This document shows, one piece after another, positions 144 to 26,159 of a DNA stretch of 28,274 bases (within the stretch, counting starts at the first letter, position 1; each line of letters starts with the position of its first letter). The notes under the pieces were generated by a model. It was given only the letters and a program-made list of their open reading frames with translations. It did no database searches and was not told the DNA's origin. Origin of the DNA: a virus (taxonomy: Duplodnaviria; Caudoviricetes); the IMG/VR virus record IMGVR_UViG_3300030372_004093, positions 1-28,274 of that record. The stretch is one strand, 5' to 3'. The translations under genes were made by a program, and so were the position numbers.

Positions 144-275
144 ATGGCTAAACCACCAAGCAACGAATACTTTACACCTGTCAAAAAAAGGACTAGTATA
201 GGGCGTTCTCCACGCAGTAGGCCAAAGAACAAGAATAAAAGACGTCAATACGTTAAATATAGAGGTCAAGGATGA
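144..275 (+). CDS. Small basic protein, 43 aa (not in ORF track)
   Basis: MAKPPSNEYFTPVKKRTSIGRSPRSRPKNKNKRRQYVKYRGQG; tightly packed, ATGA overlap with the next gene. Confidence 0.75.
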   Translation: MAKPPSNEYFTPVKKRTSIGRSPRSRPKNKNKRRQYVKYRGQG

Positions 276-403
276 GAAAAGGTTTATATGCTAATATTCA
301 TGCTAAAAGAAAACGTGGTGGAAAAATGCGTAAGAAAGGTGCAAAGGGTGCACCTACTGCAGCTAATTTTGCGAGAGCAAAACAAACAGTGAGGAAGAAA
401 TGA
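272..403 (+). CDS. Small basic protein, 43 aa (not in ORF track)
   Basis: MRKGLYANIHAKRKRGGKMRKKGAKGAPTAANFARAKQTVRKK; GAGG upstream; ATGA overlaps at both ends; no acidic residues. Confidence 0.8.
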   Translation: MRKGLYANIHAKRKRGGKMRKKGAKGAPTAANFARAKQTVRKK

Positions 404-702
404 CAAAATTATGTCCTAGGGGTAAAGCAGCAGCTAAGCGTAAATTTAAAGTTTATCCTAGTGCATATGCAAATGCATACGCTTCTAAAATATGTGCTGG
501 AAAGATTAAAGATCCTAGCGGTGTAAAAAGAAAAGATTTTAAAGGACCAAAACCAGCAGGTAAAGCAAAAGGTGGAGAGATAATTAATTTTAATAAATTA
601 TCACAAGATAGAAAAAAAATATCACAATTTAATAAAGGTGGTATCGCAAGAGCTTGTGGTGCAATAAAAGAGAATAAAAGAAAAGTTACTAGAATAACAT
701 GA
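400..702 (+). CDS. Basic phage protein, 100 aa
   Basis: Lys-rich ORF coupled by ATGA overlaps; contains YPSAYANAYA, KAKGG and FNKGG. Confidence 0.85.
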   Translation: MTKLCPRGKAAAKRKFKVYPSAYANAYASKICAGKIKDPSGVKRKDFKGPKPAGKAKGGEIINFNKLSQDRKKISQFNKGGIARACGAIKENKRKVTRIT

Positions 703-1019
703 GCTTAAAAAAATGGTTTGAGCAAGATTGGGTTGATATAGGAGCCAAGAAAAAAGGCGGTGGATTTGCTAAATGTGGTAGATCCAAACTTAAAGCTGAT
801 AGAAAAAGAAAATACCCAAAGTGTGTACCAGCTGCTAAAGCTGCTAGAATGACAGAGAGCCAAAGAAGATCAGCAGTAAAAAGAAAAAGAAGTAAAGCCC
901 AGGGCGTTGGAGGTAAACCTACCAATGTTAAAACATTTGCAGCTCAAGGTGGATTAATAACAAATCAAAGAAGAGCTGGTGTAGCACAGAGAGGATTTGG
1001 TTTTAGAGGTGTCTTCTAA
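699..1019 (+). CDS. Basic phage protein, 106 aa (possibly DUF5872-like)
   Basis: SLKKWFEQDWVDI...KYPKCVP pattern recalled from conserved phage hypothetical proteins; ATGA coupling; contains AAQGG. Confidence 0.8.
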   Translation: MSLKKWFEQDWVDIGAKKKGGGFAKCGRSKLKADRKRKYPKCVPAAKAARMTESQRRSAVKRKRSKAQGVGGKPTNVKTFAAQGGLITNQRRAGVAQRGFGFRGVF

Positions 1020-1305: not shown

Positions 1306-1846
1306 GTGGTCCGAGCATTTTTTAGAAATACCTAATAAACATTTAGGTGGTTTTCCAGCTTGCCCTTTTGCTAAGAAAACATGGAAAGATAACAAAGTTG
1401 TTGTTGAAGTAAAAAGAAAACAAAAATGGTATAAATCTGAACTTAATGCTCATTTAAAGCAATTAGATTTTTCTATTCATGAGATATTGATATTTTGCGA
1501 TCCGTACTTTAATTATTCACTTGAAGATTTTCAGGATATAATAGATGCGTACAATAAGTGGTATAATAAAAAGGATATATTTTTTATGGGTTTTCATCCC
1601 AGCAATCCAGCCAATGAGGAGGAGCAAGAATTCCTTGTCACTCCAAATGGGGACACCCCTGTTATAGAAAGTGACCTGGAGTATAGCATGATGCTGGCAC
1701 AAAAGTTCTCGCTATTACAAGAAGCTTCTGATAAACTGCACAAATCTGGTTACTATAAGTTGTGGCCAGAGGGGTACTATCAAGACGTTGTGGTATCTAG
1801 AGCAAAAACCTATAAACGAATATTCGGAGGTCGACATGATGGGTAA
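1268..1846 (+). CDS. Conserved phage protein with CPFA motif (DUF1415-like)
   Basis: 192 aa with FPACPFAK and MGFHP motifs reminiscent of DUF1415; family call from memory. Confidence 0.65.
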   Translation: MPLEEDVKQDVRKWSEHFLEIPNKHLGGFPACPFAKKTWKDNKVVVEVKRKQKWYKSELNAHLKQLDFSIHEILIFCDPYFNYSLEDFQDIIDAYNKWYNKKDIFFMGFHPSNPANEEEQEFLVTPNGDTPVIESDLEYSMMLAQKFSLLQEASDKLHKSGYYKLWPEGYYQDVVVSRAKTYKRIFGGRHDG

Positions 1847-2078
1847 AAAGAAAATGGCTGGCGGAGGTATGGCTGGCAAGAAAAAACAAGCAATGAAACG
1901 TGGTGGCAAAGTTGTAAGCAGAGCAATGGGCGGCCCTATGAAAGCTAAAAAGAAAATGGCAGGTGGAGGCATGATGAATGTTTCACCTAGAAAAGCAATG
2001 GCTATGGGCATGAAAAATGGCGGCAAAGTCATGAAGGGTAAAAAGAAAAAAGTAAAAAAAGCTAAGAAGAGAGGCTAA
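1836..2078 (+). CDS. Lys/Met/Gly-rich protamine/histone-H1-like protein, 80 aa
   Basis: SD GGAGGT at 1826-1831 supports ATG 1836 (or 1839) rather than 1788; 24 K, 4 R, 14 M, no D/E; five xxxGG motifs. Confidence 0.85.
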   Translation: MMGKKKMAGGGMAGKKKQAMKRGGKVVSRAMGGPMKAKKKMAGGGMMNVSPRKAMAMGMKNGGKVMKGKKKKVKKAKKRG

Positions 2079-3771: not shown

Positions 3772-3780
3772 GAGATTATT

Positions 3781-4227: not shown

Positions 4228-4238
4228 GGAGATAAGAT

Positions 4239-5369: not shown

Positions 5370-5370
5370 A

Positions 5371-5410: not shown

Positions 5411-5415
5411 ATATT

Positions 5416-6726
5416 ATGAGTTCGACATATTCGACAAGTTTGAGAATAGAATTACAGGCTACTGGTGCAAATTCAGGAACTTGGGGTACTATTACAAACA
5501 ACAACTTTTCTCAATCTTTAGAGTTTGCTATCGCTGGTGTTGTCAATGTAGCTTGTGGTGACGCTGCAGTCACGACTCTTACCAATGCAGATGGACCACA
5601 ATCTCAGGCGAACAACCAAGCAAGAAATGCACACATAAGATTAACAGGGGCACATGGTGCAGTAAGAATTGCACAGTTCCCAGCTACACAAAAAATTTAT
5701 TTAATTACTAACGCAACAACAGATTCTGGGTCATCTGGACCTTATGCTATGACAGTCAGACTAGGGGCTTCTGGAAATACTTTATCTATTGCAAATGGTG
5801 CAACTAGATTAGTAGCTACAGATGGCACAAATTGGTATGATGTTTTTGCAGCAGGAGGTCAGTTTGGCGGATCTTTTTTAGCCGACGGTACAGTTGATGT
5901 AAACGGTAAAGAATTAATATTAGATGCTGATGCTGATACAAGTTTAACAGCAGATTCAGACGATCAAATAGATGTTAAAATGGCAAACATAGATGTTGCT
6001 AATTTAACTACTCAAAACTCTGGTGATTTAGTTATAACCACAGCTGTTCAAGACAAAGATTTTGTTATCAAAGGAGATGACGGTGGATCAGGTATAACTG
6101 CTTTAACATTAGATATGTCAGATGCAGGTAAAGCTACATTTAATGGTGTTGTAGATGCTGATGCTGGTGTCACAATAGATAACATAACAATAGATGGAAC
6201 AGAGATTGATTTATCAAGTGGTGATTTAACACTAGACGTTGAAGGTGATATTATTTTAGACGCCAATGGCGGTGATGTAATATTTCAAGATGATGGCACA
6301 GTTATTGGTCACATTACTAATAGTTCTAGTGATTTGGTTATAGAGTCAAAAGTATCTGATAAAGACATTATATTTAAAGGTAATGATGGAGGCTCTGGTA
6401 TCACAGCACTAACTTTAGATATGTCTGGTGCAGGTGCTGCAACATTTAATAATGATGTTACTGCATTTTCAGATGAAAGATTAAAGACTGATATAAATAC
6501 TATTGAAAACGCTCTGGATAAAGTTTCTAAAATGAGAGGTGTTACTTTTAAAAGAGATGGTGTTGCTGGCACTGGTGTCATCGCACAAGAAGTACAGCCT
6601 CATCTTCCAGAAGTTATTCATGATAAACAAGAATATTTATCTGTTGCTTATGGTAACATGGTTGGAGTTTTGATAGAAGCAATCAAGGATCTAAAACAAC
6701 AGGTTGATGAATTAAAAGGAGAGTAA
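5416..6726 (+). CDS. Tail fibre with C-terminal peptidase S74 intramolecular chaperone
   Basis: FSDERLKTDI...GVIAQEVQ...VAYGNMVGVLIEAIKDLK is a canonical S74 domain; N-terminal STSLRIELQATGANSGTWG anchor region. Confidence 0.85.
   Translation: MSSTYSTSLRIELQATGANSGTWGTITNNNFSQSLEFAIAGVVNVACGDAAVTTLTNADGPQSQANNQARNAHIRLTGAHGAVRIAQFPATQKIYLITNATTDSGSSGPYAMTVRLGASGNTLSIANGATRLVATDGTNWYDVFAAGGQFGGSFLADGTVDVNGKELILDADADTSLTADSDDQIDVKMANIDVANLTTQNSGDLVITTAVQDKDFVIKGDDGGSGITALTLDMSDAGKATFNGVVDADAGVTIDNITIDGTEIDLSSGDLTLDVEGDIILDANGGDVIFQDDGTVIGHITNSSSDLVIESKVSDKDIIFKGNDGGSGITALTLDMSGAGAATFNNDVTAFSDERLKTDINTIENALDKVSKMRGVTFKRDGVAGTGVIAQEVQPHLPEVIHDKQEYLSVAYGNMVGVLIEAIKDLKQQVDELKGE
6019..6450 (+). repeat. 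Internal 42-codon duplication in tail fibre (6019-6144 and 6325-6450)
   Basis: SGDLVITTAVQDKDFVIKGDDGGSGITALTLDMSDAGKATFN versus SSDLVIESKVSDKDIIFKGNDGGSGITALTLDMSGAGAATFN. Confidence 0.9.
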
Positions 6727-6727
6727 T

Positions 6728-7762: not shown

Positions 7763-7763
7763 T

Positions 7764-8276: not shown

Positions 8277-8882
8277 ATGAAGCCTGTAAGACACGTTTCT
8301 AAGTACGCAGCTAGTAATTACAAAAGAATTTTTGATAATGAACTAACTATACAACGTAAAATATTATCAACAAAAATATCAAAAACATTACCTGTAAATT
8401 ATGATGCAGTGGCATTAAATGTCATGTCAAATTATTTTTACAATAATGTACAAAACAAAGATCAGTTCAGTTATTTTCAAGATTATTATTTTGTTGATGA
8501 CGATAAATATATTACGTGGATACATGAATACATTAGAGATCATTATCAACTAGAATATGATGAAACACCTCAAATTAATGGTACATCAGGTATAATTATA
8601 AAACAAGGTGAGCAGATAAATTATCATAATCATATTGATGATTATGACCTAAAAAATTCTTCTGACATTTCAGCTATTGTAACATGTAAAACAGGTGATA
8701 TTCCAACATACATACAATTTGAGTTTGATGATGGCAGACGAAAAATGATGAAATACAAAGTGCCAATGGAGCGAGGTAAACTTATTATGTGGAGTTCTGA
8801 TTTACGTCATTGTTTTCTAAAAAACCCTAATCATGAGCCAACAATTAGTTTGTCATATCGATTTAAATTGATTAGAAGATAA
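8277..8882 (+). CDS. Putative 2OG-Fe(II) oxygenase-like protein (HxH type)
   Basis: YHNH...LIMWSSDLRH...ISLSY double-stranded beta-helix pattern; divergent. Confidence 0.55.
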   Translation: MKPVRHVSKYAASNYKRIFDNELTIQRKILSTKISKTLPVNYDAVALNVMSNYFYNNVQNKDQFSYFQDYYFVDDDKYITWIHEYIRDHYQLEYDETPQINGTSGIIIKQGEQINYHNHIDDYDLKNSSDISAIVTCKTGDIPTYIQFEFDDGRRKMMKYKVPMERGKLIMWSSDLRHCFLKNPNHEPTISLSYRFKLIRR

Positions 8883-8903
8883 TTATAATTTTAAAAAAGA
8901 AAG

Positions 8904-9530
8904 ATGAATTTAGATACAATATTTTACGTATTCGACCAAGCATTGCCTTCAAGGTTATGTGATGACTTAGTTCAATATGGATTAGAAAAAAATCATAATA
9001 TAGCGCTTACAGGTGATGTTCATGGTAAAAAACAAGAAGAATTATCAGAAGAAGATTTAGCTAAACTTCATAAATATAGAAATTCTAATGTAGTATGGAT
9101 GGACGAGCCATGGATATACAATGCAATACAACCTTTTGTAACCCAGGCTAATATAAATGCAGGTTGGAATTTTCAATGGCAAGGATCAGAAGTTTGTCAA
9201 TGGACTAAATATGGTAAAGAACAATACTATCATTGGCATCAAGACTCACATCACAAATCTTATGGTGAAGGAGCAGGTTGGCAACAAGGATTAATAAGAA
9301 AATTGTCTGTAACTGTGTCTTTAGTTGATGGAAACACTTATAAAGGTGGAGATTTAGAATTGTTTTATCAAAGAAGTTGGAAGGATAATAAATCAATTGT
9401 TTCAGATCAAGCCAGAAACAAAGGATCAATAATAGTTTTTCCATCTTTTGTTTGGCACCGTGTGTCGCCAGTGACAGAAGGTACAAGATATTCATTAGTG
9501 GTATGGAATTTAGGAAAGGAATTTGTATGA
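8904..9530 (+). CDS. 2OG-Fe(II) oxygenase (prolyl 4-hydroxylase/PKHD-type)
   Basis: YHWHQD, RKLSVTV, GGDLE, IVFPSFVWHRVSPVTEGTRYSLVVW. Confidence 0.9.
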   Translation: MNLDTIFYVFDQALPSRLCDDLVQYGLEKNHNIALTGDVHGKKQEELSEEDLAKLHKYRNSNVVWMDEPWIYNAIQPFVTQANINAGWNFQWQGSEVCQWTKYGKEQYYHWHQDSHHKSYGEGAGWQQGLIRKLSVTVSLVDGNTYKGGDLELFYQRSWKDNKSIVSDQARNKGSIIVFPSFVWHRVSPVTEGTRYSLVVWNLGKEFV

Positions 9531-10201
9531 GAGAAGATCAAGTGTTTATTAATTTTGATCAAACAATTTTGGAAGATCACGAGTTTTTTGTTAAAAATAA
9601 TTATGTAATAATTAGAAATGTCATATCTGAAGATTTAGTAAATTTTATTTATACGTATTTTCAAAATAAAAGAGCAATTGCATCTCAATTAAAAGAGTCT
9701 AAGTTTCTATCACCATTTGATGATACTTGGGGAACATGGACAGATGCACAAATACCTAACACCTATTCACATTATGCAGATGTTGCTATGGAAACATTAA
9801 TGGTAAGAACTTTGCCAATCATGAAAAAGGTTACGAAGTTAAATTTAATACCTTGTTACACATACGCAAGAATTTATAAATTTGGTGATGAATTAATAAG
9901 ACACAAAGATAGACCATCATGCGAAATATCAACTACAATGAATTTAGGTGGAGATAACTGGCCAATTTTTTTAGAGCCTAGTGGGCAAGAAAATAAAAAA
10001 GGAGTTCGTGTTGATTTAGGCGCAGGAGACATGTTAATTTATAAAGGTTGTGAATTAGAGCACTGGAGAGAGCCTTTTCAAGGATATGATTGCGGTCAAG
10101 TATTTATGCATTATAATGATGAAAATGGACCTTTTGCAGACAAAAATAAATGGGATGGTAGACCTATGTTAGGATTGCCTGCTTGGTTTAAACCTAAATG
10201 A
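9527..10201 (+). CDS. 2OG-Fe(II) oxygenase-like protein, 224 aa
   Basis: Start at ATG 9527 (ATGA overlap, AAGGA RBS) rather than 9452; YARIY...RHKDRPSCEIS...GDMLIYKGCELEHWRE. Confidence 0.8.
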   Translation: MREDQVFINFDQTILEDHEFFVKNNYVIIRNVISEDLVNFIYTYFQNKRAIASQLKESKFLSPFDDTWGTWTDAQIPNTYSHYADVAMETLMVRTLPIMKKVTKLNLIPCYTYARIYKFGDELIRHKDRPSCEISTTMNLGGDNWPIFLEPSGQENKKGVRVDLGAGDMLIYKGCELEHWREPFQGYDCGQVFMHYNDENGPFADKNKWDGRPMLGLPAWFKPK

Positions 10202-10536
10202 CACCTTACGACATTCTACAAGTTTGGAAGAAAAAACCATATCAAAAAACAAACTACGAAAATGTTCATGCTTGTTATGAAAACGACAAGCACTATAGAA
10301 TAAAACCTAAAACACAAATAACTTTAACACCAGGTTTTGTTCATTTTGTAATAAAAAAACCAAAAGAGTGGGTGCAACAAAACTTTAAACTGGAGGAGGA
10401 CGTAACTGTTGTTAATGAAACTTTACAAATAATATATTTTTATGTGATTGATTCTTTGTTATCAAGCGCAGAGGTTGAATTAAAATTATATGTAAAAACA
10501 GGTGTTTCAAGTGAGGAAGAAGAATGGAAATTATAG
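10198..10536 (+). CDS. Hypothetical protein, 112 aa
   Basis: ATGA-coupled ORF filling the gap; no recognised motif. Confidence 0.65.
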   Translation: MTPYDILQVWKKKPYQKTNYENVHACYENDKHYRIKPKTQITLTPGFVHFVIKKPKEWVQQNFKLEEDVTVVNETLQIIYFYVIDSLLSSAEVELKLYVKTGVSSEEEEWKL

Positions 10537-11006
10537 AAAATTATCTATCAGACCGAGTATTTAATCACCTTAAAGATTTAATATTAAGCACAAAATTTTC
10601 ATGGTATTTTATGAGTAAGGTAGCTTACCTTCATGAGGATAAAGATGATTTTTATTTTAATCATAAATTTTATGAAGATAAAGAACAGTGTAGCGAGTTA
10701 TTTCAAGACATTGTTCACCCTATTATAGGTAGTTTAAATTTTAATTATTTAATAAGAGCAAGAGCAAATTTGTATACTAGAAAAGAAGAAACAATACAAA
10801 ATAGTTTTCATATTGATCAAGCTGGCACACATAAGGTCGCATTATTTTCTGTAAATACATGTAACGGATACACATTATTTAAGGACGGCACGAAGTATCA
10901 TTCCAAAGAAAATTCAATATGTATTTTTGATGGACAGTTGGAACACGCAAGTGTGTCGCAAACAGACACAAAACGACGTGTCAATATTAATATTAATTAT
11001 ATATAA
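10524..11006 (+). CDS. 2OG-Fe(II) oxygenase-like protein, 160 aa
   Basis: GAGG RBS; FHID...NGYT...FDGQLEHAS...RVNININY. Confidence 0.75.
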   Translation: MEIIENYLSDRVFNHLKDLILSTKFSWYFMSKVAYLHEDKDDFYFNHKFYEDKEQCSELFQDIVHPIIGSLNFNYLIRARANLYTRKEETIQNSFHIDQAGTHKVALFSVNTCNGYTLFKDGTKYHSKENSICIFDGQLEHASVSQTDTKRRVNININYI

Positions 11007-12066: not shown

Positions 12067-12067
12067 T

Positions 12068-12166: not shown

Positions 12167-12176
12167 TTTATCCTTT

Positions 12177-14543: not shown

Positions 14544-14557
14544 AATTTTATAATAAA

Positions 14558-15340
14558 TTACTTATTGTTTTGAGGCAAGAATTGAGTTCCAACATTGCCT
14601 TTAAAAGCATAATTACCGTAATGTGTCATACCAGATAGAATATCAGCGTATATTTTACCACCCATATTTTGCCATAAACGACAAAAAGCATAATCTTCTG
14701 ACAAATATCGTCGTGTTTTAGGCTCAATCATGGTGTCAAAAAAAGCATAATTCCAATCAGATGTTTTATGATATTCAAAGTCTTTTTCATGCGATTGATT
14801 AATATGTTGATCTGGCTTAAATTTTAAATCTGGGTAAACCCTAGCCATCCTTTCAAATACTTGTCTTTTAATCATCATAAAACCAGTAGGACCGTCCAAA
14901 ACTTCTATAAAACCTTTTTCTAATAATATGTTGTTAGGATCTTTTACATTTAAATTATATTGCAGTGAAGCAGCTAATAACTCGTCTTCGGAAATATCTG
15001 GTTTATCTTTTAATCTTTTTTTAACTTTTATCCAATCTATGGTTTTTCTTGGATAAATACCAGTGACAACATCTTTATTATATTCTAACATTCTAACCAC
15101 TGAATCTGGATTAAAAGCTAAATCAGCGTCTACAAATAAAAGATGTGAGTAGTCGCCATCCATAAATAATTGTACCAAAGTATTTCTGGCTCTAGTTATT
15201 AATGATTCATTACCAATAGTCCCGAACTGTAATTCTATTTTGTTAGTGGCTGCAAGAGCCACAAGTTGCATGCAACTTTTAAAATACTCTGTTGTGATCA
15301 ATCCACCATAACAAGGGGTACCTACAAATATCTTATTCAT
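14558..15340 (-). CDS. Glycosyltransferase-like protein (GT-A fold)
   Basis: IFVGTPCYGG, ESLITRARN, LLFVDAD (DxD), TGFMMIKR, YLSEDYAFC. Confidence 0.75.
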   Translation of the reverse strand: MNKIFVGTPCYGGLITTEYFKSCMQLVALAATNKIELQFGTIGNESLITRARNTLVQLFMDGDYSHLLFVDADLAFNPDSVVRMLEYNKDVVTGIYPRKTIDWIKVKKRLKDKPDISEDELLAASLQYNLNVKDPNNILLEKGFIEVLDGPTGFMMIKRQVFERMARVYPDLKFKPDQHINQSHEKDFEYHKTSDWNYAFFDTMIEPKTRRYLSEDYAFCRLWQNMGGKIYADILSGMTHYGNYAFKGNVGTQFLPQNNK

Positions 15341-15965
15341 TTTTGTTAGCCATGTTTAAATTTATAACTATTCTTGTTTCATTATGTATGGGATTGCAAC
15401 TTGTATGATAATAATCACCATCAAATAAAACAAATCTATTTTTTCTTGGTGTTATTCTTTTTTTAACTGTAAGATTATTTGTATCAAACTTGCTATCACA
15501 TTTTTCATTAAAAATAATGGTGTCACCATCTGAGTCATTGACATAATATATACCAGAGTAACTGTTTTCAAAAAGATTATCAACGTGCGGTGTATTATAT
15601 TTTTTATAATTTGATTTTGTATTGTTTAACAAAAAATTAATTTTTGCACGTATAATAACGGGATCAAATGTATTATTGGTAGCCCTACTGAGAGCTTGTT
15701 TCATTAAAATTAAAACTTTACCGTGTATACTAGATCTAATCTGAGGATCTTCATTATGATAATATACTCCATGGATTAATTGAGTTGTTGTAAAAGAATA
15801 TTTATTACCAAAAGCACTAATTTTATTTATATCATAATCTGTATCTATTTTAGTATCTCTGTTTACATACCAAGGAAATGTATCACTAAAACATTCTTTG
15901 CTAAAGTAGTCAGCAATATCTTTATCAACAGCATCATCTAAAACTATTATATCATGAATTTTCAT
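15333..15965 (-). CDS. 2OG-Fe(II) oxygenase-like protein, 210 aa
   Basis: TPHVD, YYVNDSDGDT, FDGDYYHTS, RIVINLN. Confidence 0.8.
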   Translation of the reverse strand: MKIHDIIVLDDAVDKDIADYFSKECFSDTFPWYVNRDTKIDTDYDINKISAFGNKYSFTTTQLIHGVYYHNEDPQIRSSIHGKVLILMKQALSRATNNTFDPVIIRAKINFLLNNTKSNYKKYNTPHVDNLFENSYSGIYYVNDSDGDTIIFNEKCDSKFDTNNLTVKKRITPRKNRFVLFDGDYYHTSCNPIHNETRIVINLNMANKNE

Positions 15966-16714
15966 TTATAGTTTTTCCTAACCCACGCATTATTTTTATA
16001 CATATCGACCATATAAGTAGCAAAATTAAATAACCATTTACTGCGCATTTTGTGGTTTTTATCTGTATCATTAGAAACTTTCATATGCCAATCATTTCTC
16101 GCAAAAGGAAATACTAAAGCTATGGGATATCCTTTTGGAATTATTTTTTGTGGACTAAGTTTTTCATCCCAATCTTTAAGAAAAAATGGAAAATTAACAT
16201 ATGTTTCATATCTATCAGTATCCACAACACCAGTCACTATCCTAATATCTCTTTCTTCAGTGTTAAAAGGAGAAGTAAAAAGACAACTATATCCTGGCGG
16301 TGTTTTAATTATCCATGGGTTTCCAAATTTAAAAGCTATAGGTATCTCATTTTTATAAACCATTTTCTTTGCAAACTCATAAGAGGAGTGCGCACTTACA
16401 TGATAATTTATTTCTTGAGGTATATTTTTTAACATGTCTAAATGTTCAAACTCATTTAATCTACCTGACTGAACCTTTACATCAACGGTTTGATTGTCAT
16501 TAATAGTTTTTGTAAACATTATATCTATAGACGACAATAGAGCATAACCCATTGTAACACTGTCAAGCACGGGCACGCAATTTTTCACTGTACCTAAATT
16601 TAAATCTTTGTTAATATATTTTTCCATGTCTTTGTACCACCTAGGAACAACCTTTTTCATTGGAACTGGATGTACCAAATATTCTGCATGTTTACTTATA
16701 AATTTAATTTTCAA
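15962..16714 (-). CDS. Conserved phage protein (possibly DUF6065-like), 250 aa
   Basis: TTG start; PRWYK, TVKNCVPVLD, NPWIIKTPPGYSCLF, GVVDTD; paralogue of the neighbouring gene. Confidence 0.75.
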   Translation of the reverse strand: MKIKFISKHAEYLVHPVPMKKVVPRWYKDMEKYINKDLNLGTVKNCVPVLDSVTMGYALLSSIDIMFTKTINDNQTVDVKVQSGRLNEFEHLDMLKNIPQEINYHVSAHSSYEFAKKMVYKNEIPIAFKFGNPWIIKTPPGYSCLFTSPFNTEERDIRIVTGVVDTDRYETYVNFPFFLKDWDEKLSPQKIIPKGYPIALVFPFARNDWHMKVSNDTDKNHKMRSKWLFNFATYMVDMYKNNAWVRKNYK

Positions 16715-17402
16715 ATTTTTTCCATTGTAAAATTTTAATTAAATTTTTAAATCTATCTTTAAATTTTGAATTAATTATATTGTTTTGAGTATTGATTTTT
16801 TTACCTAATTTGTAATCATCTGTCATTATTAAATCAAAATTCTCTCTCTTGTAAGGAACATACATTGCTAAAGGCGTGCCTTTTTTTATTAAGAACTCAC
16901 CCTCTTTAAAAATGCACATTTGTTGATTTATTGTGTGATATACATCCGTATGCAAAACGCCAGGTAAGACTTCAAAATCCTCACTGTAATTGTAATACAT
17001 CGGTAATTGCAAAACACTATAGCCTTTTGGTGTAATTATCTTCCAAGGACAATCAGGTTTAAGAATAATTTTTGTTTTTTCAGCTACGTGTTTTGGAACA
17101 TGATATAAATATTGTTCATGGTTATGTATTGTGAATGTATATTGCTTGTCAGGTGTGTTCCATTCATAATACATTTCATCATTTTTAATCTTTAAATTAA
17201 TTTTTAAATCACACCAGAGAGATACTACATAACCCTGTTTAAAATAATCCACAAAGCCTGGACAAGTTTTAATGGTAGCAGCTGATAATTCATCATTACT
17301 TATGTTTACGCTTTTAAACCATGTTGGTATATGCGCAACTGATTTTGTAATAGGGTTAGAAATTTTTAATCCATCTATGTTATTATAGAAAAATATTTTC
17401 AA
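16704..17402 (-). CDS. Conserved phage protein (possibly DUF6065-like), 232 aa
   Basis: TTG start with AGAGG RBS; PTWFK, TIKTCPGFVD, PWKIITPKGYSVL, GVLHTD, KGTPLA. Confidence 0.75.
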   Translation of the reverse strand: MKIFFYNNIDGLKISNPITKSVAHIPTWFKSVNISNDELSAATIKTCPGFVDYFKQGYVVSLWCDLKINLKIKNDEMYYEWNTPDKQYTFTIHNHEQYLYHVPKHVAEKTKIILKPDCPWKIITPKGYSVLQLPMYYNYSEDFEVLPGVLHTDVYHTINQQMCIFKEGEFLIKKGTPLAMYVPYKRENFDLIMTDDYKLGKKINTQNNIINSKFKDRFKNLIKILQWKKFEN

Positions 17403-17411
17403 TCTGCCTCT

Positions 17412-17957
17412 TTATCTCTTTAATATTATATTTGAGGATATTATGATTCTTTCACCCTCAACAGGATTCTCTGCTGAGTGCAATAGATTACTTGGAAAAA
17501 ATATTAATTTTCCTACCTCTGATGCTATAGTAGTTTGATTTTGTATACATGTTGGATTTGGATTGTGAAACAATGTTTCACCCATGTTAGTTAAATATAA
17601 AACACTAGAATAATTTGCATCCTCGCCTTTTACAAAATTTGTGTGAACATGTTTATCGTGCAAACCTTTTAAATTATATATAGCAGTCCAATAATTTTTC
17701 ATAGAAAAAGGAACGTTATTACTATGAAAATAATTTGCTATGGATAACATTAATTTTTCATATTCAAATAATTTAATAGGATCACTAAAATCTGTGTAGT
17801 AATCACCAGAGCCACCATTATTGCTGTAGATAGAATTTGTTTTTTTTATTTCATTTTTTTTACTTGTTACTTCATTTATTAAAGGCCTTATCTCATCAAC
17901 GTTAAATTTAAACGTAAGTATTTCTGTTGGAAATAATAGTATGTTACCGTGTTGCAT
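17412..17957 (-). CDS. Putative 2OG-Fe(II) oxygenase (TIGR02466-like), 181 aa
   Basis: HDKHVH, SSVLYL, FFPSNLLHSA, RIIISSN. Confidence 0.75.
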   Translation of the reverse strand: MQHGNILLFPTEILTFKFNVDEIRPLINEVTSKKNEIKKTNSIYSNNGGSGDYYTDFSDPIKLFEYEKLMLSIANYFHSNNVPFSMKNYWTAIYNLKGLHDKHVHTNFVKGEDANYSSVLYLTNMGETLFHNPNPTCIQNQTTIASEVGKLIFFPSNLLHSAENPVEGERIIISSNIILKR

Positions 17958-18222
17958 ATTCTACCTTTAAATATTCTATCTTTCTTACCCAACCCCTTGG
18001 TATAGCAATAGCGCCACCACCGTGATTATCGTCTTTATCTATACACCAAGACCGCATAATTACAATCTTATCGTCATTGTTTACAACCATGTATCCTACT
18101 TCTTGGCACACGGCTAACGGAGCATCAAATATGTCTTTTACGTGGATCCACCCAGTTTCTGTATCCTTAGCGTCTAGCCAAGTGATACGAACCATTGGTA
18201 CTTTTTCAATATCAAATCGCAT
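17944..18222 (-). CDS. Conserved small phage protein, 92 aa
   Basis: VRITWLDA...GW...VGYMV...IPRGWV small beta-barrel-like pattern. Confidence 0.75.
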   Translation of the reverse strand: MRFDIEKVPMVRITWLDAKDTETGWIHVKDIFDAPLAVCQEVGYMVVNNDDKIVIMRSWCIDKDDNHGGGAIAIPRGWVRKIEYLKVEYATR

Positions 18223-18223
18223 C

Positions 18224-18925
18224 TCATCTTTGAATGTTTCTCGGTTTCTCTAACTCGGCTGCGTTCATGTATTTTTTTTGAATAATATCAATATTGAAAG
18301 ATACAGACCTTCTTTCTTCATTTGGTGTTCTAAAAGGATAAACAGTGTGTGACAACCAAGATGGAAAAACGTAAATGTCGCCTACTTTAGGAGTTGCTTG
18401 AAAATTGTGTGCGCTAAATTTAGCAGCTTGACCAACCATAAATTGTATATCGCCTACACAAGGATGATGATCTTCTTTAGCATACTCTTCTTTTAAACTT
18501 GGTGGTACTCTTGTGTAAATCACACCAGATAAATCTCCATCATGTACATGTACAGGGTTAAAGTCTCCAGCCCACTGACTAACGCACCACATGCTAGTTA
18601 TTCGCATTGATTCAACATTATCAGCATGAATTGTGTCCATAGCAGGTGGAAAATTTAAATACTGTTCAGTAATAATTTTTAAAGCCAAAAGCATTGGTTT
18701 AAAATTATCGGACTCTAGAAATTGTGGTGGATATCTTATTTCTTTTTGGACATTACCTGCTAAATTCATTGAGTGATCCCATTCTTCAGACAATTCATTT
18801 GATTTTAATATTTCATCAGCTTTATCATCTAAAAGTTTTATTAAATTTGTTGGTAAATGGCCCTTAAATATTGTGGGGCCAAACGGTCTAATTGCTTCAA
18901 AATTTTGTTTTTGATCGTCTTCCAT
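18224..18925 (-). CDS. Putative 2OG-Fe(II) oxygenase, 233 aa
   Basis: FNPVHVH, LSGVIY, VFPSWLSHTVYPF, RRSVSFN. Confidence 0.8.
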   Translation of the reverse strand: MEDDQKQNFEAIRPFGPTIFKGHLPTNLIKLLDDKADEILKSNELSEEWDHSMNLAGNVQKEIRYPPQFLESDNFKPMLLALKIITEQYLNFPPAMDTIHADNVESMRITSMWCVSQWAGDFNPVHVHDGDLSGVIYTRVPPSLKEEYAKEDHHPCVGDIQFMVGQAAKFSAHNFQATPKVGDIYVFPSWLSHTVYPFRTPNEERRSVSFNIDIIQKKYMNAAELEKPRNIQR

Positions 18926-19059: not shown

Positions 19060-20121
19060 ATGATTGATGAACAATTTTTACAGACTATTCCCCAATACGG
19101 TATTGGTGGTTTTGTCGGTAAAGTATTTAAAAAAGTAAAGGATACCGTAAAAAAAGTGGCGCCCATCGTAGGTGGTGGTATTGGCTTTTTATTAGGTGGA
19201 TCTGCTGGCGCTGGTATTGGTGCAGGTATCGGTGGATTAATTGCAGGACAAAAACCTGGAGAGGCTCTTGGCACTGCAGCACTTGGTTATGGTATCGGAT
19301 CATTAGCGGGTAGTTTTGCTCCTATTGGTCGTTATGCGGGAAGAGGTATACCAGGAACAGACATAGGTGGTTTGTTAGGCACGGCATCAGATAGAGCATT
19401 AACAACTGCTACTGATGATCCAGCAAATATTATACAAAGATTAATTGGTGGTGGTGGAACACCAAAAGTATCAACTTCTGAACAAAAAATAATAAACATT
19501 CAAAACGCAATAGATGCTGGCGAAGTAGATGCAGCAATAGGAAAAGATTTAATAGATTTAGAAAAATTAAAAATTTTAACAGGACAAAATAAAAAACCAA
19601 TACTTGGAGGCAACTTAGGTAATGTATTGACAGCAGGAGCCGCTATATCACCTATAGCAACTTACATGGCTGCACAAGCTGAGCAAGAAGGATTTGTTCC
19701 AGAAGATCCTAACGCATTAAATCCATTTTATTACATGAACCCAGAAGAATTTCAAATTGCAAACCTTGGGACAAACCCTTACTACTATGACACTTTACAA
19801 GATGATTTTGGTGTTCCTCGAGAAGATTTACCAACTGATTTTGTTAGACCAACAACAGCAGCTCAAGGCGGTATTATGAGATTAGCAAATGGAGGTACTC
19901 AAGAGTTTCCAAGAAAAACAGGTGAGATTAATGGACCAGGCACTGGCACGTCTGATGACATACCAGCAATGTTGAGTGATGGTGAATTTGTATTTACTGC
20001 ACGGGCTGTTCGTAATGCAGGTGGTGGTAGTAGAAGAGAGGGCGCTAAGAGAATGTATCAAATGATGAAAAATTTAGAAAAAGGTGGTACACTGTCTGAA
20101 CAATCAAGAGGAGTAGCATAA
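19060..20121 (+). CDS. Putative internal virion/ejection protein with Gly-zipper N-terminus and tape-measure-like C-terminal motif, 353 aa
   Basis: AAGGA RBS; GxxxG-rich hydrophobic N-terminus; C-terminal GPGTGTSDDIPAMLSDGEFVFTARAV. Confidence 0.7.
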   Translation: MIDEQFLQTIPQYGIGGFVGKVFKKVKDTVKKVAPIVGGGIGFLLGGSAGAGIGAGIGGLIAGQKPGEALGTAALGYGIGSLAGSFAPIGRYAGRGIPGTDIGGLLGTASDRALTTATDDPANIIQRLIGGGGTPKVSTSEQKIINIQNAIDAGEVDAAIGKDLIDLEKLKILTGQNKKPILGGNLGNVLTAGAAISPIATYMAAQAEQEGFVPEDPNALNPFYYMNPEEFQIANLGTNPYYYDTLQDDFGVPREDLPTDFVRPTTAAQGGIMRLANGGTQEFPRKTGEINGPGTGTSDDIPAMLSDGEFVFTARAVRNAGGGSRREGAKRMYQMMKNLEKGGTLSEQSRGVA

Positions 20122-21044
20122 TGGTAACGCAAACACAAATATCTAGAGAAGCACCAGATATAGAAGCTCGTCGTTTGGGTTTAATTGACAGTGCAAAAGC
20201 ACTTGCAGAAAAACCTATTACTTTACCAGATTATACTCTTGCAGGATTTCAGGCTCCTGAAACACAGGCATTTAATTTAGCTGGCCTTGGTATTGGTGCG
20301 TATGAGCCATTATTAAATCAAGCTCAACAAGCAATATTAGCAGGACAAGGAACAACTGCGGGCACGATACCTTTACTTACATCCTTAGCACAAACCCCAA
20401 CTGCTGCAAGCTTTGCACCGTTTCAAAGTAATTTTCAGCAAGCTGTTATTGATCAAACTTTAAAACAATTAGACGAACAAGCTGCCCAACAACAAACACA
20501 ATTAGGTGATTTAGCTCAATCACGAGGTGCTTTTGGTGGATCAAGGCAAGCTGTACAAGAAGCTTTGCTGGGTGAAGGTTTACAAGATGCTAAAGCAAGA
20601 GCAATAGCAGGGTTGAATCAACAATCGTTTGAAAACGCTCAAGCTGCTTTTGCAAGAAATCAAGAATTACAGAGATTGGCGGCACTGGGTATTGGTGGAT
20701 TAGGCGCACAACAAGCAGGTTTTGGATCTGCTTTACAAAACTTGGCCGCACAAGAACAAGGTATGAGAGGTGCAGATATTAGTCAACTACTTGGGGTAGG
20801 TGGTCTACAAAGACAGCAAGCTCAAGCAGGATTAGACATCGGTAGACAAAATGTTTTACAAAATATTTTTGAACCATATCAAAGAATTGGTTTTTATGGA
20901 GACGTTCTTGCTCAAGCTCCATCATCACAACAAACTTTAGTCCCATCAGTTAGTCCAGGTGTTTCTCCATTACAGCAAGCAATAGGAGTAGGTATTGGAG
21001 CACTTTCTGGCATAGCAGGATTAAGAAGATCAGGAGTAGTGTAA
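20121..21044 (+). CDS. Putative DNA transfer/ejection protein, 307 aa
   Basis: Gln/Ala-rich helical protein with GAFGGSRQ and hydrophobic Gly-rich C-terminus; TAATG coupling. Confidence 0.65.
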   Translation: MVTQTQISREAPDIEARRLGLIDSAKALAEKPITLPDYTLAGFQAPETQAFNLAGLGIGAYEPLLNQAQQAILAGQGTTAGTIPLLTSLAQTPTAASFAPFQSNFQQAVIDQTLKQLDEQAAQQQTQLGDLAQSRGAFGGSRQAVQEALLGEGLQDAKARAIAGLNQQSFENAQAAFARNQELQRLAALGIGGLGAQQAGFGSALQNLAAQEQGMRGADISQLLGVGGLQRQQAQAGLDIGRQNVLQNIFEPYQRIGFYGDVLAQAPSSQQTLVPSVSPGVSPLQQAIGVGIGALSGIAGLRRSGVV

Positions 21045-23506
21045 TGAGTGTTTTAAATAGAGCAATGTTTAACCAAACAGTTAATAGACAAGAAGGATCA
21101 CCTCCATCAGGTGAAGAAAATTTTTTTGAAAGATTTGCTAGTCTTCTTAGAGGACAAAAATCAGATCCAATACGAACAGAAGAAGGTTTTACAGTTAATG
21201 AAATAGAAAATATTTTAAATACACCTGCCTCATCCTCCTTACCTGTTAGTGATGATTCAACAGTGTATAATTTTGGAGAATATGGTGGCACTTATGATTT
21301 AAAAGAAGAGGGCTTTCAAAGAGTGCTCCGTAATTATTTACCCGAGGGCGCAGATTTATTTGTTGGTAATCCACGAGACTACATTTTATCACCAGAAGGT
21401 ATGGATGCGATAGAATTATTTAAAGCTGACATACTTAAAACACAAGAAGCTAACAGAGCTATGGGATCACCCATAACAGGTGAGGGTATAAATGGTCTTA
21501 AAAAATTAGATGATATGAGATTTAGACAAATGGGATCTCCAATGCAAGGTGAGATGGCTCAACCAACACAGGCGATGCCACAACAAAATCCAGAGAACGT
21601 TGGAATCATGCAAGGTTTTGAAGACGATGCAAAAACAATTGTTGATGCAGGATCTGAGAAAAAAGAAGAGTTTGATAAAGCTGAAGATTATGAACAGTTA
21701 ATGAATACCATAAGAGGAGACAATAAATCTGAAGATCAAAGAAGAGATGAGCTAGCAGAAATCGTAGGCGAAAAAGATGCTGATGATACACCAGAAAGTG
21801 TTTTAGCATTAGTTCAACCAGTCATTCAAATGTTAGATACTCCAGAGGTTAGACAAGAAGGTATTGGAGCTACACCACAAGCGTTTGCTATGGGCGGACC
21901 AGTTTACAGAGATGATGGTACAGGTAAAGAAGGTGAAACATCAAATAATGATGATGCATTAAATAATTTATTTATACAAATGTTATTATCTGGGAACACA
22001 TCGGGTGCAAACATACCGTCTTTAGCCACAGGTTTTCAAAAGAACCTACCCGTTATGCAAAATATTTTAGGAAGAGATCCAGATAGAACAGCCGCTGATA
22101 CATTTTTTAATATTGCTAGAAGTGGTTTTGGATTAGCCGCTGGCATGACACCACAAGAAGCACTTTTATTAGGTTTACAAGGCCAACAAAAAATTGGAGC
22201 AAAAGAAGAAGCAAGAGATTTAGCTATTAAACAAGCAGCACTTGGTGAAGCTTCTAAAGATAAATCATTTGCTCAACAACTTGATTTAGCAATAAAAAAA
22301 GAACAAGCTAAAAAGAAAGATACTAAAGGATCTACATTTGTTGTAGGATCTGGTGTAGAGGTGCCAAAGGCTGTATCATCACTTTTAAGTAGTGATCAAA
22401 TAAGCGCTTACCCAGACGGAACAAATATATTTGTTGATGAAAAAAATAAATTATCGATAAACATTCCTGCTCAAGCAGATCAAGAAGCTTATTACGATAC
22501 AGAAAATCAAAAAATCGTATTTCTAACAGATAGAGAATATGAAGACTTACAAGATAAAACTAACATAACAACTGTAAGTGCAGGTTTGTCATTTACTAAA
22601 TTAGCAAAACTAGAAGACGGCAAAGTTGTTGAAGGGACAATTAAAGATATTAGAAATACACAACAAGACACGATAAACGACTTACTTGAAGAAGGTTATG
22701 TTATTATATCAAATAGTTTTGAGGTTAATAAAGATCGTGAGGGCGGGTCATTATTTGCAGATGGTGGTATAGTAAAAAGATCAGATGGATCTCCAGAAGA
22801 TGGTGAAAACGCTCCAGGTAGTGATTATGAAGCAATATTAGCTGATGCAGAAACTGCTTTAAAAGATGCTGGTGTTGTGTTTCCTGCTTTAACAGACACA
22901 GACAAATCATTCTTTAATTCACTGTATGCATCAACCTTAGAATCACTAAATGATTTGAAAAGAGTAAAAGAATTGATGGCAGCTGATCCAAGTTTAACAG
23001 GTTACACTGGTCTAGCACAGGAAACTTTAACTAATTTTGCTACTTTAATTAATGATATGGATAATTATATGGGTGACAAAATATTCCCAGATGATGCTAA
23101 GGGTCAACCAAAATTTTTACAGTATTTTACAAAACCTGAAATTAGAGAATTAAAATTTAAGGTAGCTGAACTTTCTGATGCGGTAGCAGACATCCTATCA
23201 TTAAGAGGTAAGAGAGGCACAACAGCAGATGTTAGAGGCCAAGCTTTAAAAAGAACTGACCTAACAGGTTTTTATGGAAGTGATGTTGCATTTGAAAAAA
23301 TAGACAGCTTAACTGATTATTTAACAGACAGGGTTAAGGTCTTTGGCATGTTATCTGGTAACTTTGAACCAGGTGAAAAGTACGACAAATTTGTTTCAAA
23401 TATTACAACTTTAAACAATGCTATTAAAAATATAAATCCTCAAAACTATGAAGGTAAGAAAACAACATTTACACTAGAAGATCTTGAATCTATTGTAGGA
23501 GAATAA
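21044..23506 (+). CDS. Putative internal virion protein, 820 aa
   Basis: Long acidic ORF in the ejection-protein position; AGGAG RBS; repeated RxxGSPxxGE and FAxGG motifs. Confidence 0.7.
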   Translation: MSVLNRAMFNQTVNRQEGSPPSGEENFFERFASLLRGQKSDPIRTEEGFTVNEIENILNTPASSSLPVSDDSTVYNFGEYGGTYDLKEEGFQRVLRNYLPEGADLFVGNPRDYILSPEGMDAIELFKADILKTQEANRAMGSPITGEGINGLKKLDDMRFRQMGSPMQGEMAQPTQAMPQQNPENVGIMQGFEDDAKTIVDAGSEKKEEFDKAEDYEQLMNTIRGDNKSEDQRRDELAEIVGEKDADDTPESVLALVQPVIQMLDTPEVRQEGIGATPQAFAMGGPVYRDDGTGKEGETSNNDDALNNLFIQMLLSGNTSGANIPSLATGFQKNLPVMQNILGRDPDRTAADTFFNIARSGFGLAAGMTPQEALLLGLQGQQKIGAKEEARDLAIKQAALGEASKDKSFAQQLDLAIKKEQAKKKDTKGSTFVVGSGVEVPKAVSSLLSSDQISAYPDGTNIFVDEKNKLSINIPAQADQEAYYDTENQKIVFLTDREYEDLQDKTNITTVSAGLSFTKLAKLEDGKVVEGTIKDIRNTQQDTINDLLEEGYVIISNSFEVNKDREGGSLFADGGIVKRSDGSPEDGENAPGSDYEAILADAETALKDAGVVFPALTDTDKSFFNSLYASTLESLNDLKRVKELMAADPSLTGYTGLAQETLTNFATLINDMDNYMGDKIFPDDAKGQPKFLQYFTKPEIRELKFKVAELSDAVADILSLRGKRGTTADVRGQALKRTDLTGFYGSDVAFEKIDSLTDYLTDRVKVFGMLSGNFEPGEKYDKFVSNITTLNNAIKNINPQNYEGKKTTFTLEDLESIVGE

Positions 23507-23507
23507 T

Positions 23508-26159
23508 ATGGGTGAAATATTTATTGAAGGATTGCCCTTTAGTATAGACATCGAAGGAGATACGCCCACAAAAGATGAAGCTCAACGAATAATGAAAGTT
23601 GTCGACAGGCTAAATGAAATACAACAAGGTCCTGGACAAGATACTATCAAAATGTTGGAAGATGGTCCATTAAGTGGATTATACAGCGATGAAAAATTAG
23701 AAGAACTTGGTGATAAATTAAACATTGATTTAGAGCAAAAAAGAAATTCTATAAACATATTAAATGATTTAGGTTTTATAGATAAAAAAGAATTATTACC
23801 TTTAGAACAATTTGGTATAAGTAGAACAGATGCTGCCATAGCAGGATCAATGGCTGGTAGTGCTCAGGGTTTTAGAGAATTGTTTGATTTAAAAAATCAA
23901 GACAATTTAAGAAAACTTTATAAAAATGTACAATTATTTGATCCTAAAAAACTTGCAATTGCTGGCGGTAAAGCGTTGTTTGGAGGTATTTTTGGTGATG
24001 TAAGTGGTAGAGTTGCTTTTGATGTAGCAAATTTTATTTTATCTGGAGATAAAGATGCACTGCAATTTGTAAACACTTTAGATGCAGATACAAAAGAAGC
24101 AATTTTTTATGAGTCTTTAGGTTTAATATTTCCAGAAGCTTTAGCTTCTATTTATAGAAATGTTCTAACTGGTGTTGGAAAAATAAAACCAGATGCAATA
24201 ACTAGAAAAGCACTTGAATCAGCGCAAAGACTTGGCATCGATTTAAACTTTGGACAAATTATAAGATTTGCTCCTATGGCTAGAGCTTTATCTCCTTTAC
24301 CTTTCATTGGTAGTGGAGTAAGAAAAACTTTATCGACTCAAGCTGGAAAAATAAATGAGGCTTTTCAAAAATTCACAGAACTATATGCGCCAATTTCTAC
24401 TTTCAGCAAAAACGGTGTCGATATATTTCAAAAAGTTTCTAGAAGATTTGAAGCAAACAAAAGGGTATTAAACAACCTTTGGTCAAAAGCGTACGATTCT
24501 CATGCGATGTTAAAAGATAAAAATGTTTTTCGTGCTGATGATTTAAATAAATTTTTTACAAATTTATTAGAGGGAAATGTAATAACTAAATTTAAAAATT
24601 TACCGACAAACAAAGATGGTATTATTGAAACTTATGAAACAATACAAAAATCTGGTTTTTTTGAAAACGCAGGTTTAGCAAGAATTCAAGGCGAGGGTCT
24701 TAAAGATTTGATAGACACAATGCGTCGCTATCAAATTGAGGTTAATAAAAATGGCGGAAAAGTTAGTTATGAAACTATACGTAATTTTAATGATGAAATT
24801 AGCACTTTGTTTAAAGATCTTACTGAGGGAGATAAAGTTTTTAAGGGTCAATTTGCAAGAATATTAACACAATTTAGAGTTGCAAATGATCAGTTACTAG
24901 AAAATTTAGATAAGAATTTAATTAAAGAATTGATACCAGAAGAGATGTTACCTAACATTTTAACGAGTCACAAAAATGCAAATGAATTTACAAAAAGAAT
25001 ATTAGATTTATATGATGGCCCAGCTGGCAATATTTTTGGAACTTACGTAAAAAATCTTTTTCAACCAGGATATATCAAAGATAAAAAAGCAAGAGATCAA
25101 ATATTAAATACTTTAATGAATGTTAGATCACCAGATATGCTGAAAGATTTACAACTAATCATGGGACCTAATAATTTTAAAGCATATGCAAATGAGTGGA
25201 TGTCAAATGCGTTTGCAAAAGCAGCTGTTACGGAAGGTGATGCTGTAGCAACAAGATTAGATTTTGATCCACAAAAATTAAACCAAGCTTTTGGTTTTGA
25301 TATTAGATCTAAAACTGATTTTACAGAACAGCTATTTAAAATATTAGGTGTTAACAATCAGACATTGAAAGATTTAATTACATCAGGTGCCTTTTTACAA
25401 AATGTAAAAATAGGAAATCCATCTTCATTCTTACAAAGAAGATTTCAATTAACTGGTATGAACAATATTTTAGGCACTGCATTAGCTGGAGGTGCTGCTT
25501 ATGGCGGTAGTAATGCGTTAATCGGTGATGAGGATGATGGAATATTTGCTAAAGGTATAAAAGGTTTAACTGGTCTTTTCATTATGAGATATGGTGTTAG
25601 TAAAGTTTTTGCTAACCCAAAATTAGCTAAAAAAATAGTAGATGTTTATGATCCAAGTAGAGCATTAAACTTTAATATTAAATTAGATTTGTTTAGGGGA
25701 TTATTTGATTTACATCATCAAGAAGATCCAGAATCAATATCTGAGTCTGTAAACATAATGAATCAAGCCAGAGAAACTTTAGTCGATACGGTTTCAGATA
25801 AAGAGTTAGATGCATTTGATGCATTATTAAATACTTTAAAGTCACAAGCAGACATATTTCAAAAGGGGCAAACATTAGACGAAGAAGAAGAAGAAATGGA
25901 AAAATTAAGAGAGGATCCAGAAGAGGTAATAGAAGAAGATATTATAATACCAGAAGAAAAACCAGATCAAGATGACGTAAGCTTTAATATTCCTAGCCCT
26001 AATATCAATATGAACATGGCTAATGTTGTACCACCAATTTCAAGTGCTCAATTAGATCCTGCACTAGTTCAAAGACTATCAAGTGTTGGTTTACCATTTT
26101 TTGCTAATGAGGGTGGTATAGCTACTCTAATGAATAAACCAAAACAAATGGTGGCGTAA
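23508..26159 (+). CDS. Putative large internal virion protein, 883 aa
   Basis: AGGAG RBS; helical; acidic C-terminal linker ending FANEGGIATL. Confidence 0.7.
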   Translation: MGEIFIEGLPFSIDIEGDTPTKDEAQRIMKVVDRLNEIQQGPGQDTIKMLEDGPLSGLYSDEKLEELGDKLNIDLEQKRNSINILNDLGFIDKKELLPLEQFGISRTDAAIAGSMAGSAQGFRELFDLKNQDNLRKLYKNVQLFDPKKLAIAGGKALFGGIFGDVSGRVAFDVANFILSGDKDALQFVNTLDADTKEAIFYESLGLIFPEALASIYRNVLTGVGKIKPDAITRKALESAQRLGIDLNFGQIIRFAPMARALSPLPFIGSGVRKTLSTQAGKINEAFQKFTELYAPISTFSKNGVDIFQKVSRRFEANKRVLNNLWSKAYDSHAMLKDKNVFRADDLNKFFTNLLEGNVITKFKNLPTNKDGIIETYETIQKSGFFENAGLARIQGEGLKDLIDTMRRYQIEVNKNGGKVSYETIRNFNDEISTLFKDLTEGDKVFKGQFARILTQFRVANDQLLENLDKNLIKELIPEEMLPNILTSHKNANEFTKRILDLYDGPAGNIFGTYVKNLFQPGYIKDKKARDQILNTLMNVRSPDMLKDLQLIMGPNNFKAYANEWMSNAFAKAAVTEGDAVATRLDFDPQKLNQAFGFDIRSKTDFTEQLFKILGVNNQTLKDLITSGAFLQNVKIGNPSSFLQRRFQLTGMNNILGTALAGGAAYGGSNALIGDEDDGIFAKGIKGLTGLFIMRYGVSKVFANPKLAKKIVDVYDPSRALNFNIKLDLFRGLFDLHHQEDPESISESVNIMNQARETLVDTVSDKELDAFDALLNTLKSQADIFQKGQTLDEEEEEMEKLREDPEEVIEEDIIIPEEKPDQDDVSFNIPSPNINMNMANVVPPISSAQLDPALVQRLSSVGLPFFANEGGIATLMNKPKQMVA

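Follow-up and report, generated by a model that had tools for sequence, protein, structure and literature searches.

A conserved di-glycine motif in predicted internal proteins of a putative HTVC023P-type podophage as a possible docking and cleavage signal

Two phages, T4 and SPN3US, are already known to load and mature their internal proteins by way of a motif; in T4 a capsid targeting sequence acts together with gp21. Both are myoviruses in which a shared motif is tied to loading and maturation, and both have a recognizable prohead protease and mostly N-terminal propeptides. In adenovirus and African swine fever virus (ASFV; protease pS273R), a clan CE protease cuts core proteins after a Gly-Gly (GG) pair. 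To our knowledge, the selection and maturation of internal proteins in podophages are poorly known. SPN3US gp245 cleaves head and ejection proteins at A-X-E (PMC10052503; publications are cited by PMC number). In the podophage P22, the ejection proteins are recruited via the scaffold, mature gp7 starts with Lys-Gly-Gly-Lys-Gly after cleavage by host OpdA, and loss of the first 20 residues of gp7 affects its function little (PMC8402733). Here we analyzed the marine phage record IMGVR_UViG_3300030372_004093 of IMG/VR, the whole 28,274 bases of which (an estimated 45% of the genome) are called the window below, for a short motif of the form x-[A/K/N]-x-G-G-x-hydrophobic, often extended as G-G-I-A-S-L. 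A preliminary description of the window had noted this motif in basic mini-proteins and in ejection proteins and knew of no comparable scheme in podophages. P22 gp7 is already in print as a podophage ejection protein processed beside GG, but it is a single protein, cut by a host enzyme one residue before the GG, in a different register.

The gene content of the window, with two SU10-type adaptor genes and a phrog_4287 ejection gene as markers of a podophage late region, fits an HTVC023P-type podophage, as do the best matches of its 614-aa nozzle-like protein (DSL-LC04, HTVC023P and HTVC027P, 40-45% identity). The terminase, portal, scaffold and capsid genes are located outside the window. Every GG peptide named in the preliminary description was confirmed at its coordinates (Table 1), and we found the motif to be shared by unrelated proteins of two distant clusters, a left one of small proteins and a right one of predicted ejection proteins. 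The codons of the motif glycines differed both within the window and between orthologues, indicating that the motif is a protein-level feature and not a DNA repeat. On the other hand, the idea that everything packed inside the capsid is tagged was too wide, since the 307-aa and 496-aa proteins of the ejection cluster and two basic mini-proteins (144-275 and 1012-1305) had no match to the motif profile.

Among orthologues of the 100-, 106- and 80-aa proteins the motif was retained while its flanks differed; it was present in 54 of 63, 60 of 68 and 67 of 74 complete open reading frames (ORFs) among the blast matches, respectively, and orthologues of the 80-aa protein also differed in motif copy number. 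At the C-terminal site of the 883-aa protein, a conserved G-G-I-A-[ST]-L, the two glycines were invariant in all 11 aligned C-termini, in a protein whose alignment columns average 39% identity. Conservation in the 820-aa protein was uneven: across 24 orthologues the two glycines were conserved at 0.46 and 0.96 at site 284 and at 0.33 and 0.21 at site 574, and the low values indicate that the latter is a lineage-specific site. Local alignments of 820-aa orthologues often began or ended at motifs (for example 161-265 in locus L049 and 572-820 in locus L056). Two of the original observations need qualification. The AAQGG peptides about 19 kb apart are indeed identical, but this identity is partly luck, as most 353-aa orthologues have AEGG at that place; and RKRGG of the 43-aa protein, retained in one of three distinct orthologue types, is a doubtful member of a list that otherwise held.

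Two further elements lie close to the motif. A G-I-x-x-L element (GIASL, GIGGLV, GIMAL, GGITSGL) recurs at protein termini in a clade poor in the A-x-G-G form (loci L035-L055), at the ends of the large ejection proteins and the starts of the 353-aa and 820-aa orthologues, and may be a second, overlapping signal. The 820-aa protein of the window carries a variant, R-x-x-G-S-P, at 21086, 21455, 21524 and 22778. In its R-x-x-G-[S/T]-P form this variant is often placed directly behind a GG motif, is typically followed by G-E 3-4 residues on, and is retained in orthologues at close and middle distance.

The six small basic proteins of the window contain 11 occurrences of the pattern, whereas shuffles that preserve composition give an expectation of 2.8; this test is circular because the pattern was derived from those proteins. 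A weight matrix built from orthologues of three mini-proteins, with 129 distinct GG contexts as its training set, was run on HTVC023P, HTVC027P, DSL-LC04 and HTVC103P (the last from base 4104). Protein groups were assigned by position and homology after the GG lists had been seen and not blind, and proteins are called "internal" as a prediction, on the basis of gene position and homology; the basic group overlaps the training set, while the large cargo groups are independent of it. At a threshold of 3, profile matches among the GG sites numbered 11 of 35 for the basic late, 8 of 30 for the pre-portal and 6 of 89 for the ejection proteins (25/154 combined); the external structural proteins had 1 match at 482 sites and the other proteins 5 at 138. 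For the large pre-portal and ejection proteins (14 of 119 sites), Fisher's p was 9e-10 against the external and 0.016 against the other proteins. When GG was held fixed and the flanks were redrawn, p was 0.0007 for basic, 0.0003 for pre-portal and 0.007 for ejection proteins, and 0.93 for external and 0.06 for other proteins. Cargo proteins without the module described below had matches at 8 of 83 GG sites, with 1.6 expected. At a threshold of 2, the large cargo did not differ significantly from the other proteins (p = 0.13), which were themselves enriched (p = 0.004). Enrichment in the five ejection-cluster proteins of the window itself was marginal (2 matches at 30 GG sites, with p = 0.066, or 0.024-0.026 when either of the other two thresholds is used). 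With a plain regular expression, we detected no enrichment in the ejection proteins of five relatives (p 0.13-0.96) and an enrichment in the Gly-rich tail proteins of three, and only the weighted profile separates the protein groups. We conclude that the motif is a real, conserved protein signal that is, in these sequences, largely concentrated in predicted internal proteins. As in T4 and SPN3US, one short motif is found on unrelated, predicted internal proteins and is scarce in outer ones; unlike there, the motif is a different one, its sites are N-terminal, internal and C-terminal, and no protease is recognizable.

At its C-terminal end, over ~70 residues, the 353-aa protein matches tape measure proteins. 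The shared portion is a module of ~58 aa that is covered by no Pfam family and that retrieved 11,187 cluster representatives with phmmer at E 0.001. Judged by hhalign comparison, a homologue of the module lies in the C-terminal portion of lambda gpH (~729-790; probability 91%, E 1.1e-6), with 87% and E 3.7e-6 for a trimmed set and E 0.006 in a whole-genome search. The motif brackets the module in the 353-aa protein (residues 270, 278 and 342); the GG of the C-flank was kept in only about half of 29 orthologues, and in some orthologues, which have the shortest form of the module, the motif is fused directly to its start. Prophage tape measure proteins showed the same arrangement, the module opening with a motif at a fixed place and a second copy usually closing it. 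Among 48 distinct N-flank sites of tape measure proteins, A stood two residues before GG in 34 and V or I two residues after it in 47. Five giant tape measure proteins contained 21 module copies, all 21 with the N-flank GG and 18 with a second motif within 50 residues. These giants (P0361, P0363, P0364, P0367 and P0459), which are tape-measure-like by module context, are 2,334-3,816 aa long and carry 4-5 motif-bracketed modules between other segments, resembling polyproteins.

The module was present in all four motif-rich relatives and was absent from CRP-901 (whole record), phiM5, DB virus 2 and the examined 40 of 65 kb of MinM2. Motif matches numbered 20 versus 4.5 expected in the four module-bearing relatives and 5 versus 4.5 in the four module-lacking podophages, and the module is the only component we found that tracks the motif. 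HTVC103P had only two matches, both in the module-bearing protein beside its portal gene. This protein, gp79 of a phage from a different pelagiphage group (L064, 42570-43865), is 431 aa long, has five GG motifs with the module at its end, and is encoded between the portal gene and the gene preceding the capsid gene. The module of the 353-aa protein is a candidate motif reader or processing module. Two AlphaFold2 models of it had pLDDT values of 61.6 and 72.8 with a poorly resolved N-terminal half; these low-confidence models gave no Foldseek match and no VIA match above Z 3.0 and are uninformative on the fold. Sequence searches of the PDB located the module in only two tape measure proteins, 8zdo and 8rk3, of which the respective papers model just the last 42 and 33 residues; the same kind of search gave no solved relative of the 307-aa protein.

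We compared these sites with proteins whose processing or structure has been mapped. T5 pb2 is cut after R1127, as determined by mass spectrometry (PMC10038345). In the sequence record the cut reads FVPR↓AEGGMM, two residues before GG and not after it, and leaves 92 residues downstream, the length stated in PMC12617516; R-A-x-G-G at this place was kept in all three distant T5-like tape measure proteins compared (Stubb, Pylo and D124). The new N-terminus A-E-G-G-M-M matches the window motif, and pb2, too, is ejected through the tail. On the other hand, pb2 is a siphophage tail-lumen protein with one known site, whereas the motif of the window is found on at least six separate proteins. The role in cleavage or sorting suggested earlier is plausible; its adenovirus/ASFV form is unsupported, and the only mapped cut on a matching sequence precedes GG.

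Lambda gpH is matured to gpH* and gpHC of ~78 and ~14 kDa, by a cleavage whose site and catalyst were stated to be unknown in 2025 (PMC12617516). We found that ATGG brackets the module homologue of gpH at 734 and 779, as two GG motifs bracket the module of the 353-aa protein, and a cut before 734 computes to 79.8 and 12.5 kDa. Unlike in lambda, the module here ends a podophage ejection-cluster protein encoded beside a phrog_4287 gene and not a long-tail tape measure protein, and free copies of the motif occur on other genes.

In crAss001, the resolved, portal-bound piece of cargo protein C1 (gp45) comprises residues 425-552 (PMC10172136). Residue 425 is the A of N↓AFGG, the next motif follows at 560, and Pfam PF25725 (crAss_CARG1) begins at residue 424; gp45 is, like the predicted internal proteins of the window, an internal cargo protein punctuated by A-x-G-G, with a portal-bound domain that starts at one such site. 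None of the motif sites at 207, 261, 330, 371 and 425 falls within the four regions covered by mass spectrometry that are named in the accessible text (79-101, 181-190, 275-300 and 307-320; PMC10172136), which is weakly compatible with cutting. The named Atlas cluster nearest to the module was crAss_CARG1 (0.77), which we take as a lead only; the reciprocal Atlas search gave no match, and PF25725 matched none of 94 module sequences at E 1 and nothing in the window at E 10. Profile comparison did not establish homology of the module to gp45 or to the C-terminal part of pb2 (pb2C), so both links rest on the short motif.

The reading that we favor, with a probability of about 45%, makes the motif a site of docking and cleavage that is recognized within the procapsid and processed as X↓A-x-G-G. 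The carriers would be internal virion proteins, and the motif would bind a partner in the procapsid. The docked sites would then be cut two residues before the glycines, as in T5 pb2, so that ejection domains would be released while short basic peptides would remain with the DNA; the module of the 353-aa protein might be the reader or the catalyst. A wider proposal, which we consider rather doubtful, is that the module is an unrecognized processing unit, self-cleaving or motif-reading and present in more than 11,000 sequence clusters, which would make X↓A-x-G-G cuts in cis in siphophage tape measure proteins and would act in trans, from the portal, on each cargo protein with a free motif copy in HTVC023P-type podophages and crassviruses.

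Several observations weigh against docking and cleavage. We found no report of a cut in HTVC023P-type virions in the open-access literature. Seven of 21 orthologues of the 820-aa protein lacked any match to the motif pattern and an eighth had one, and in one clade the large ejection protein ends in RAGIGGLV or RSGIMALT, where a cut would free little. A profile built from the 48 tape-measure N-flank sites was also enriched about fourfold in "other" proteins (20 versus 4.9), which indicates that a generic turn pattern accounts for some of the signal; this profile scored the T5 site at 4.9, second in pb2 and below the threshold of 8, and left the 425 site of gp45 outside its top 8. The module is small, has neither His nor Cys and did not fold with confidence, so that a catalytic role is hypothetical; moreover, the pattern used in the search had partly determined which Asp/Glu positions are invariant in it. 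The co-occurrence of motif and module compares four genomes with four, of which two controls are partly covered, and the genomes are related. In hhalign, the module gave E 0.19-0.2 against pb2C profiles (templates of one and four sequences) and E 0.24 and 0.067 against gp45. The authors of the gp45 structure take the protein as continuous, with a 179-residue bridge, and the accessible text makes no mention of cleavage (PMC10172136); the modelled start at 425 can be a mere domain edge.

We also searched for an enzyme. The preliminary description saw no protease in the window, and we agree: no clan-CE-like protease was recognized in 40 window ORFs compared with PHROGs and 22 compared with Pfam, a search that could miss a distant enzyme. 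Such a protease was likewise not found in HTVC023P (28 of 86 proteins against Pfam and 20 of 86 against PHROGs) or in the examined annotations of relatives, and no prohead protease was recognized among the scanned head genes of HTVC023P. A Peptidase M15 encoded by this phage is presumably a cell-wall enzyme. An HslV-like peptidase is encoded in DSL-LC04 (L003, 21530-21982), and one of the HslV family lies between terminase and portal in the motif-free phiM5 (L273, 2090-2611); none was found in HTVC023P, HTVC027P, the examined part of HTVC103P or 133 window-related loci. We rejected this peptidase as the cutter since its presence does not track the motif.

The alternative that survives best, and that we regard as possible, is an uncut docking tag: the motif would bind scaffold, portal or module via a short strand or helix, load the cargo into the procapsid and never be cleaved. 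It accommodates sites at extreme termini (14 residues from the end in the 883-aa protein; RAGIGGLV at the very end in the other clade), the multivalent repeats of the 80-aa protein, and the motif fused to the start of the shortest module like a structural first element, and it agrees with the scaffold-mediated recruitment of P22 ejection proteins (PMC8402733) and with the observation that no protease tracks the motif. It is opposed by T5 pb2, the sole like sequence with a mapped terminus, which is cut, and by lambda gpH, whose homologous module lies in the region where this protein is cut. An uncut tag and a docking-and-cleavage site account equally well for the observed enrichment and co-occurrence.

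It is unlikely that the motif acts passively, as a hinge or as a junction for shuffling, where a flexible GG linker would ease unfolding through the portal and provide short homology for module exchange without a specific partner. Motifs do lie at swap points between orthologues, standalone basic domains are part of longer proteins elsewhere (phrog_11180 and phrog_28131 match the 43-aa protein and HTVC023P gp43), and GG-x-V/I is mildly enriched in unrelated proteins; but the flanking residues are constrained at the tape-measure sites, the glycine codons vary freely, terminal copies join nothing, and the Gly-rich external proteins are practically devoid of the motif (1/482). Much less probable still is an adenovirus- or ASFV-like system in which a dedicated phage cysteine protease cuts core proteins after GG. 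The di-glycine on basic, core-like proteins is common to both, and a protease gene could lie outside a window that covers ~45% of the genome; however, those viruses have another upstream consensus, and the adenovirus consensus as given in the preliminary description, (M/L/I)xGG, showed no enrichment in any of the protein groups across six genomes (lowest p 0.057), no such protease was present among the scanned proteins, the HslV-like gene does not track the motif, and T5 is cut before GG. A chance or low-complexity artefact of Gly/Lys-rich proteins, to which the values of the window's ejection proteins alone (p 0.02-0.07), the 17% Gly of the 353-aa protein and the unconserved RKRGG might point, is largely refuted and hardly credible, as composition-matched and GG-conditioned nulls were exceeded in independent genomes and the GG of the 883-aa protein is invariant despite the divergence of that protein.

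Table 1. Positions of motif-bearing and neighbouring features of the two clusters in the window
Feature	Position	Strand	Remarks
43-aa basic protein, phrog_16028	272..403	+	RKRGG at 308-328, doubtful motif member
100-aa basic protein, conserved N-terminal domain phrog_27331	400..702	+	KAKGGEI 562-582 and FNKGGIA 628-648, after the domain
106-aa basic protein, conserved domain phrog_23735	699..1019	+	AAQGGLI 939-959, after the domain
80-aa Lys/Met/Gly protein, nearly all motif repeats	1836..2078	+	five motifs, at 1854, 1893, 1920, 1956 and 2010
353-aa protein, first gene of the ejection cluster	19060..20121	+	YGIGGFV 19096, AAQGGIM 19858, LANGGTQ 19882, LEKGGTL 20074
~58-aa module of the 353-aa protein, residues ~283-340	19906..20079	+	also in tape measure proteins, including lambda gpH
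307-aa DNA ejection protein, phrog_4287	20121..21044	+	without motif profile match
820-aa predicted ejection protein	21044..23506	+	FAMGGPV 21884, FADGGIV 22754
883-aa predicted ejection protein	23508..26159	+	ANEGGIA 26103-26123, 14 residues from the C-terminus

The remainder of the window has features of its own. The 43-aa basic protein matches stretches of far longer phage proteins (phrog_11180, 22379, 28131 and 11470), which indicates that such basic domains occur elsewhere as fused parts of larger proteins. A single gene separates two paralogous adaptor genes of the SU10 type (PF24175; 2078-2776 and 3109-3771). By eye, the C-terminus of the tail fibre encoded at 5416-6726 resembles an auto-processing domain of the intramolecular chaperone type, which has no relation to the GG motif. 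Among RNA runs, two marine metatranscriptomes with a share of 0.05 provide no evidence. The block at 11485-18925 is on the minus strand and contains the nozzle-like gene; it is probably an inversion, since in HTVC023P and in loci L015 and L021 the nozzle-like gene is co-oriented with the ejection genes. The regions 8277-11006 and 11485-18925 together hold an unusually large modification cluster, in which eight genes match oxygenase-like families (phrog_81, 61, 2954 and 274) and two tandem genes match phrog_7084; a glycosyltransferase-like gene, judged by eye, lies at 14558-15340.

We did not find the motif or its link to the tape-measure module described in the open-access literature, a search that did not extend to subscription papers and supplements, and the motif is not described in the accessible portions of PMC12002296, PMC10713586, PMC5512222 and PMC9599517. 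Phages of the HTVC023P type rank among the most abundant viruses of the sea (PMC9599517). If a shared signal is indeed used, their cargo would be predictable from sequence, and perhaps foreign proteins could be loaded. For lambda gpH, our comparison places the expected cut directly ahead of A734, or alternatively of A779, and draws attention to the neighbouring module; should the module prove to be a processing unit, the missing site and catalyst of gpH maturation would have been named.

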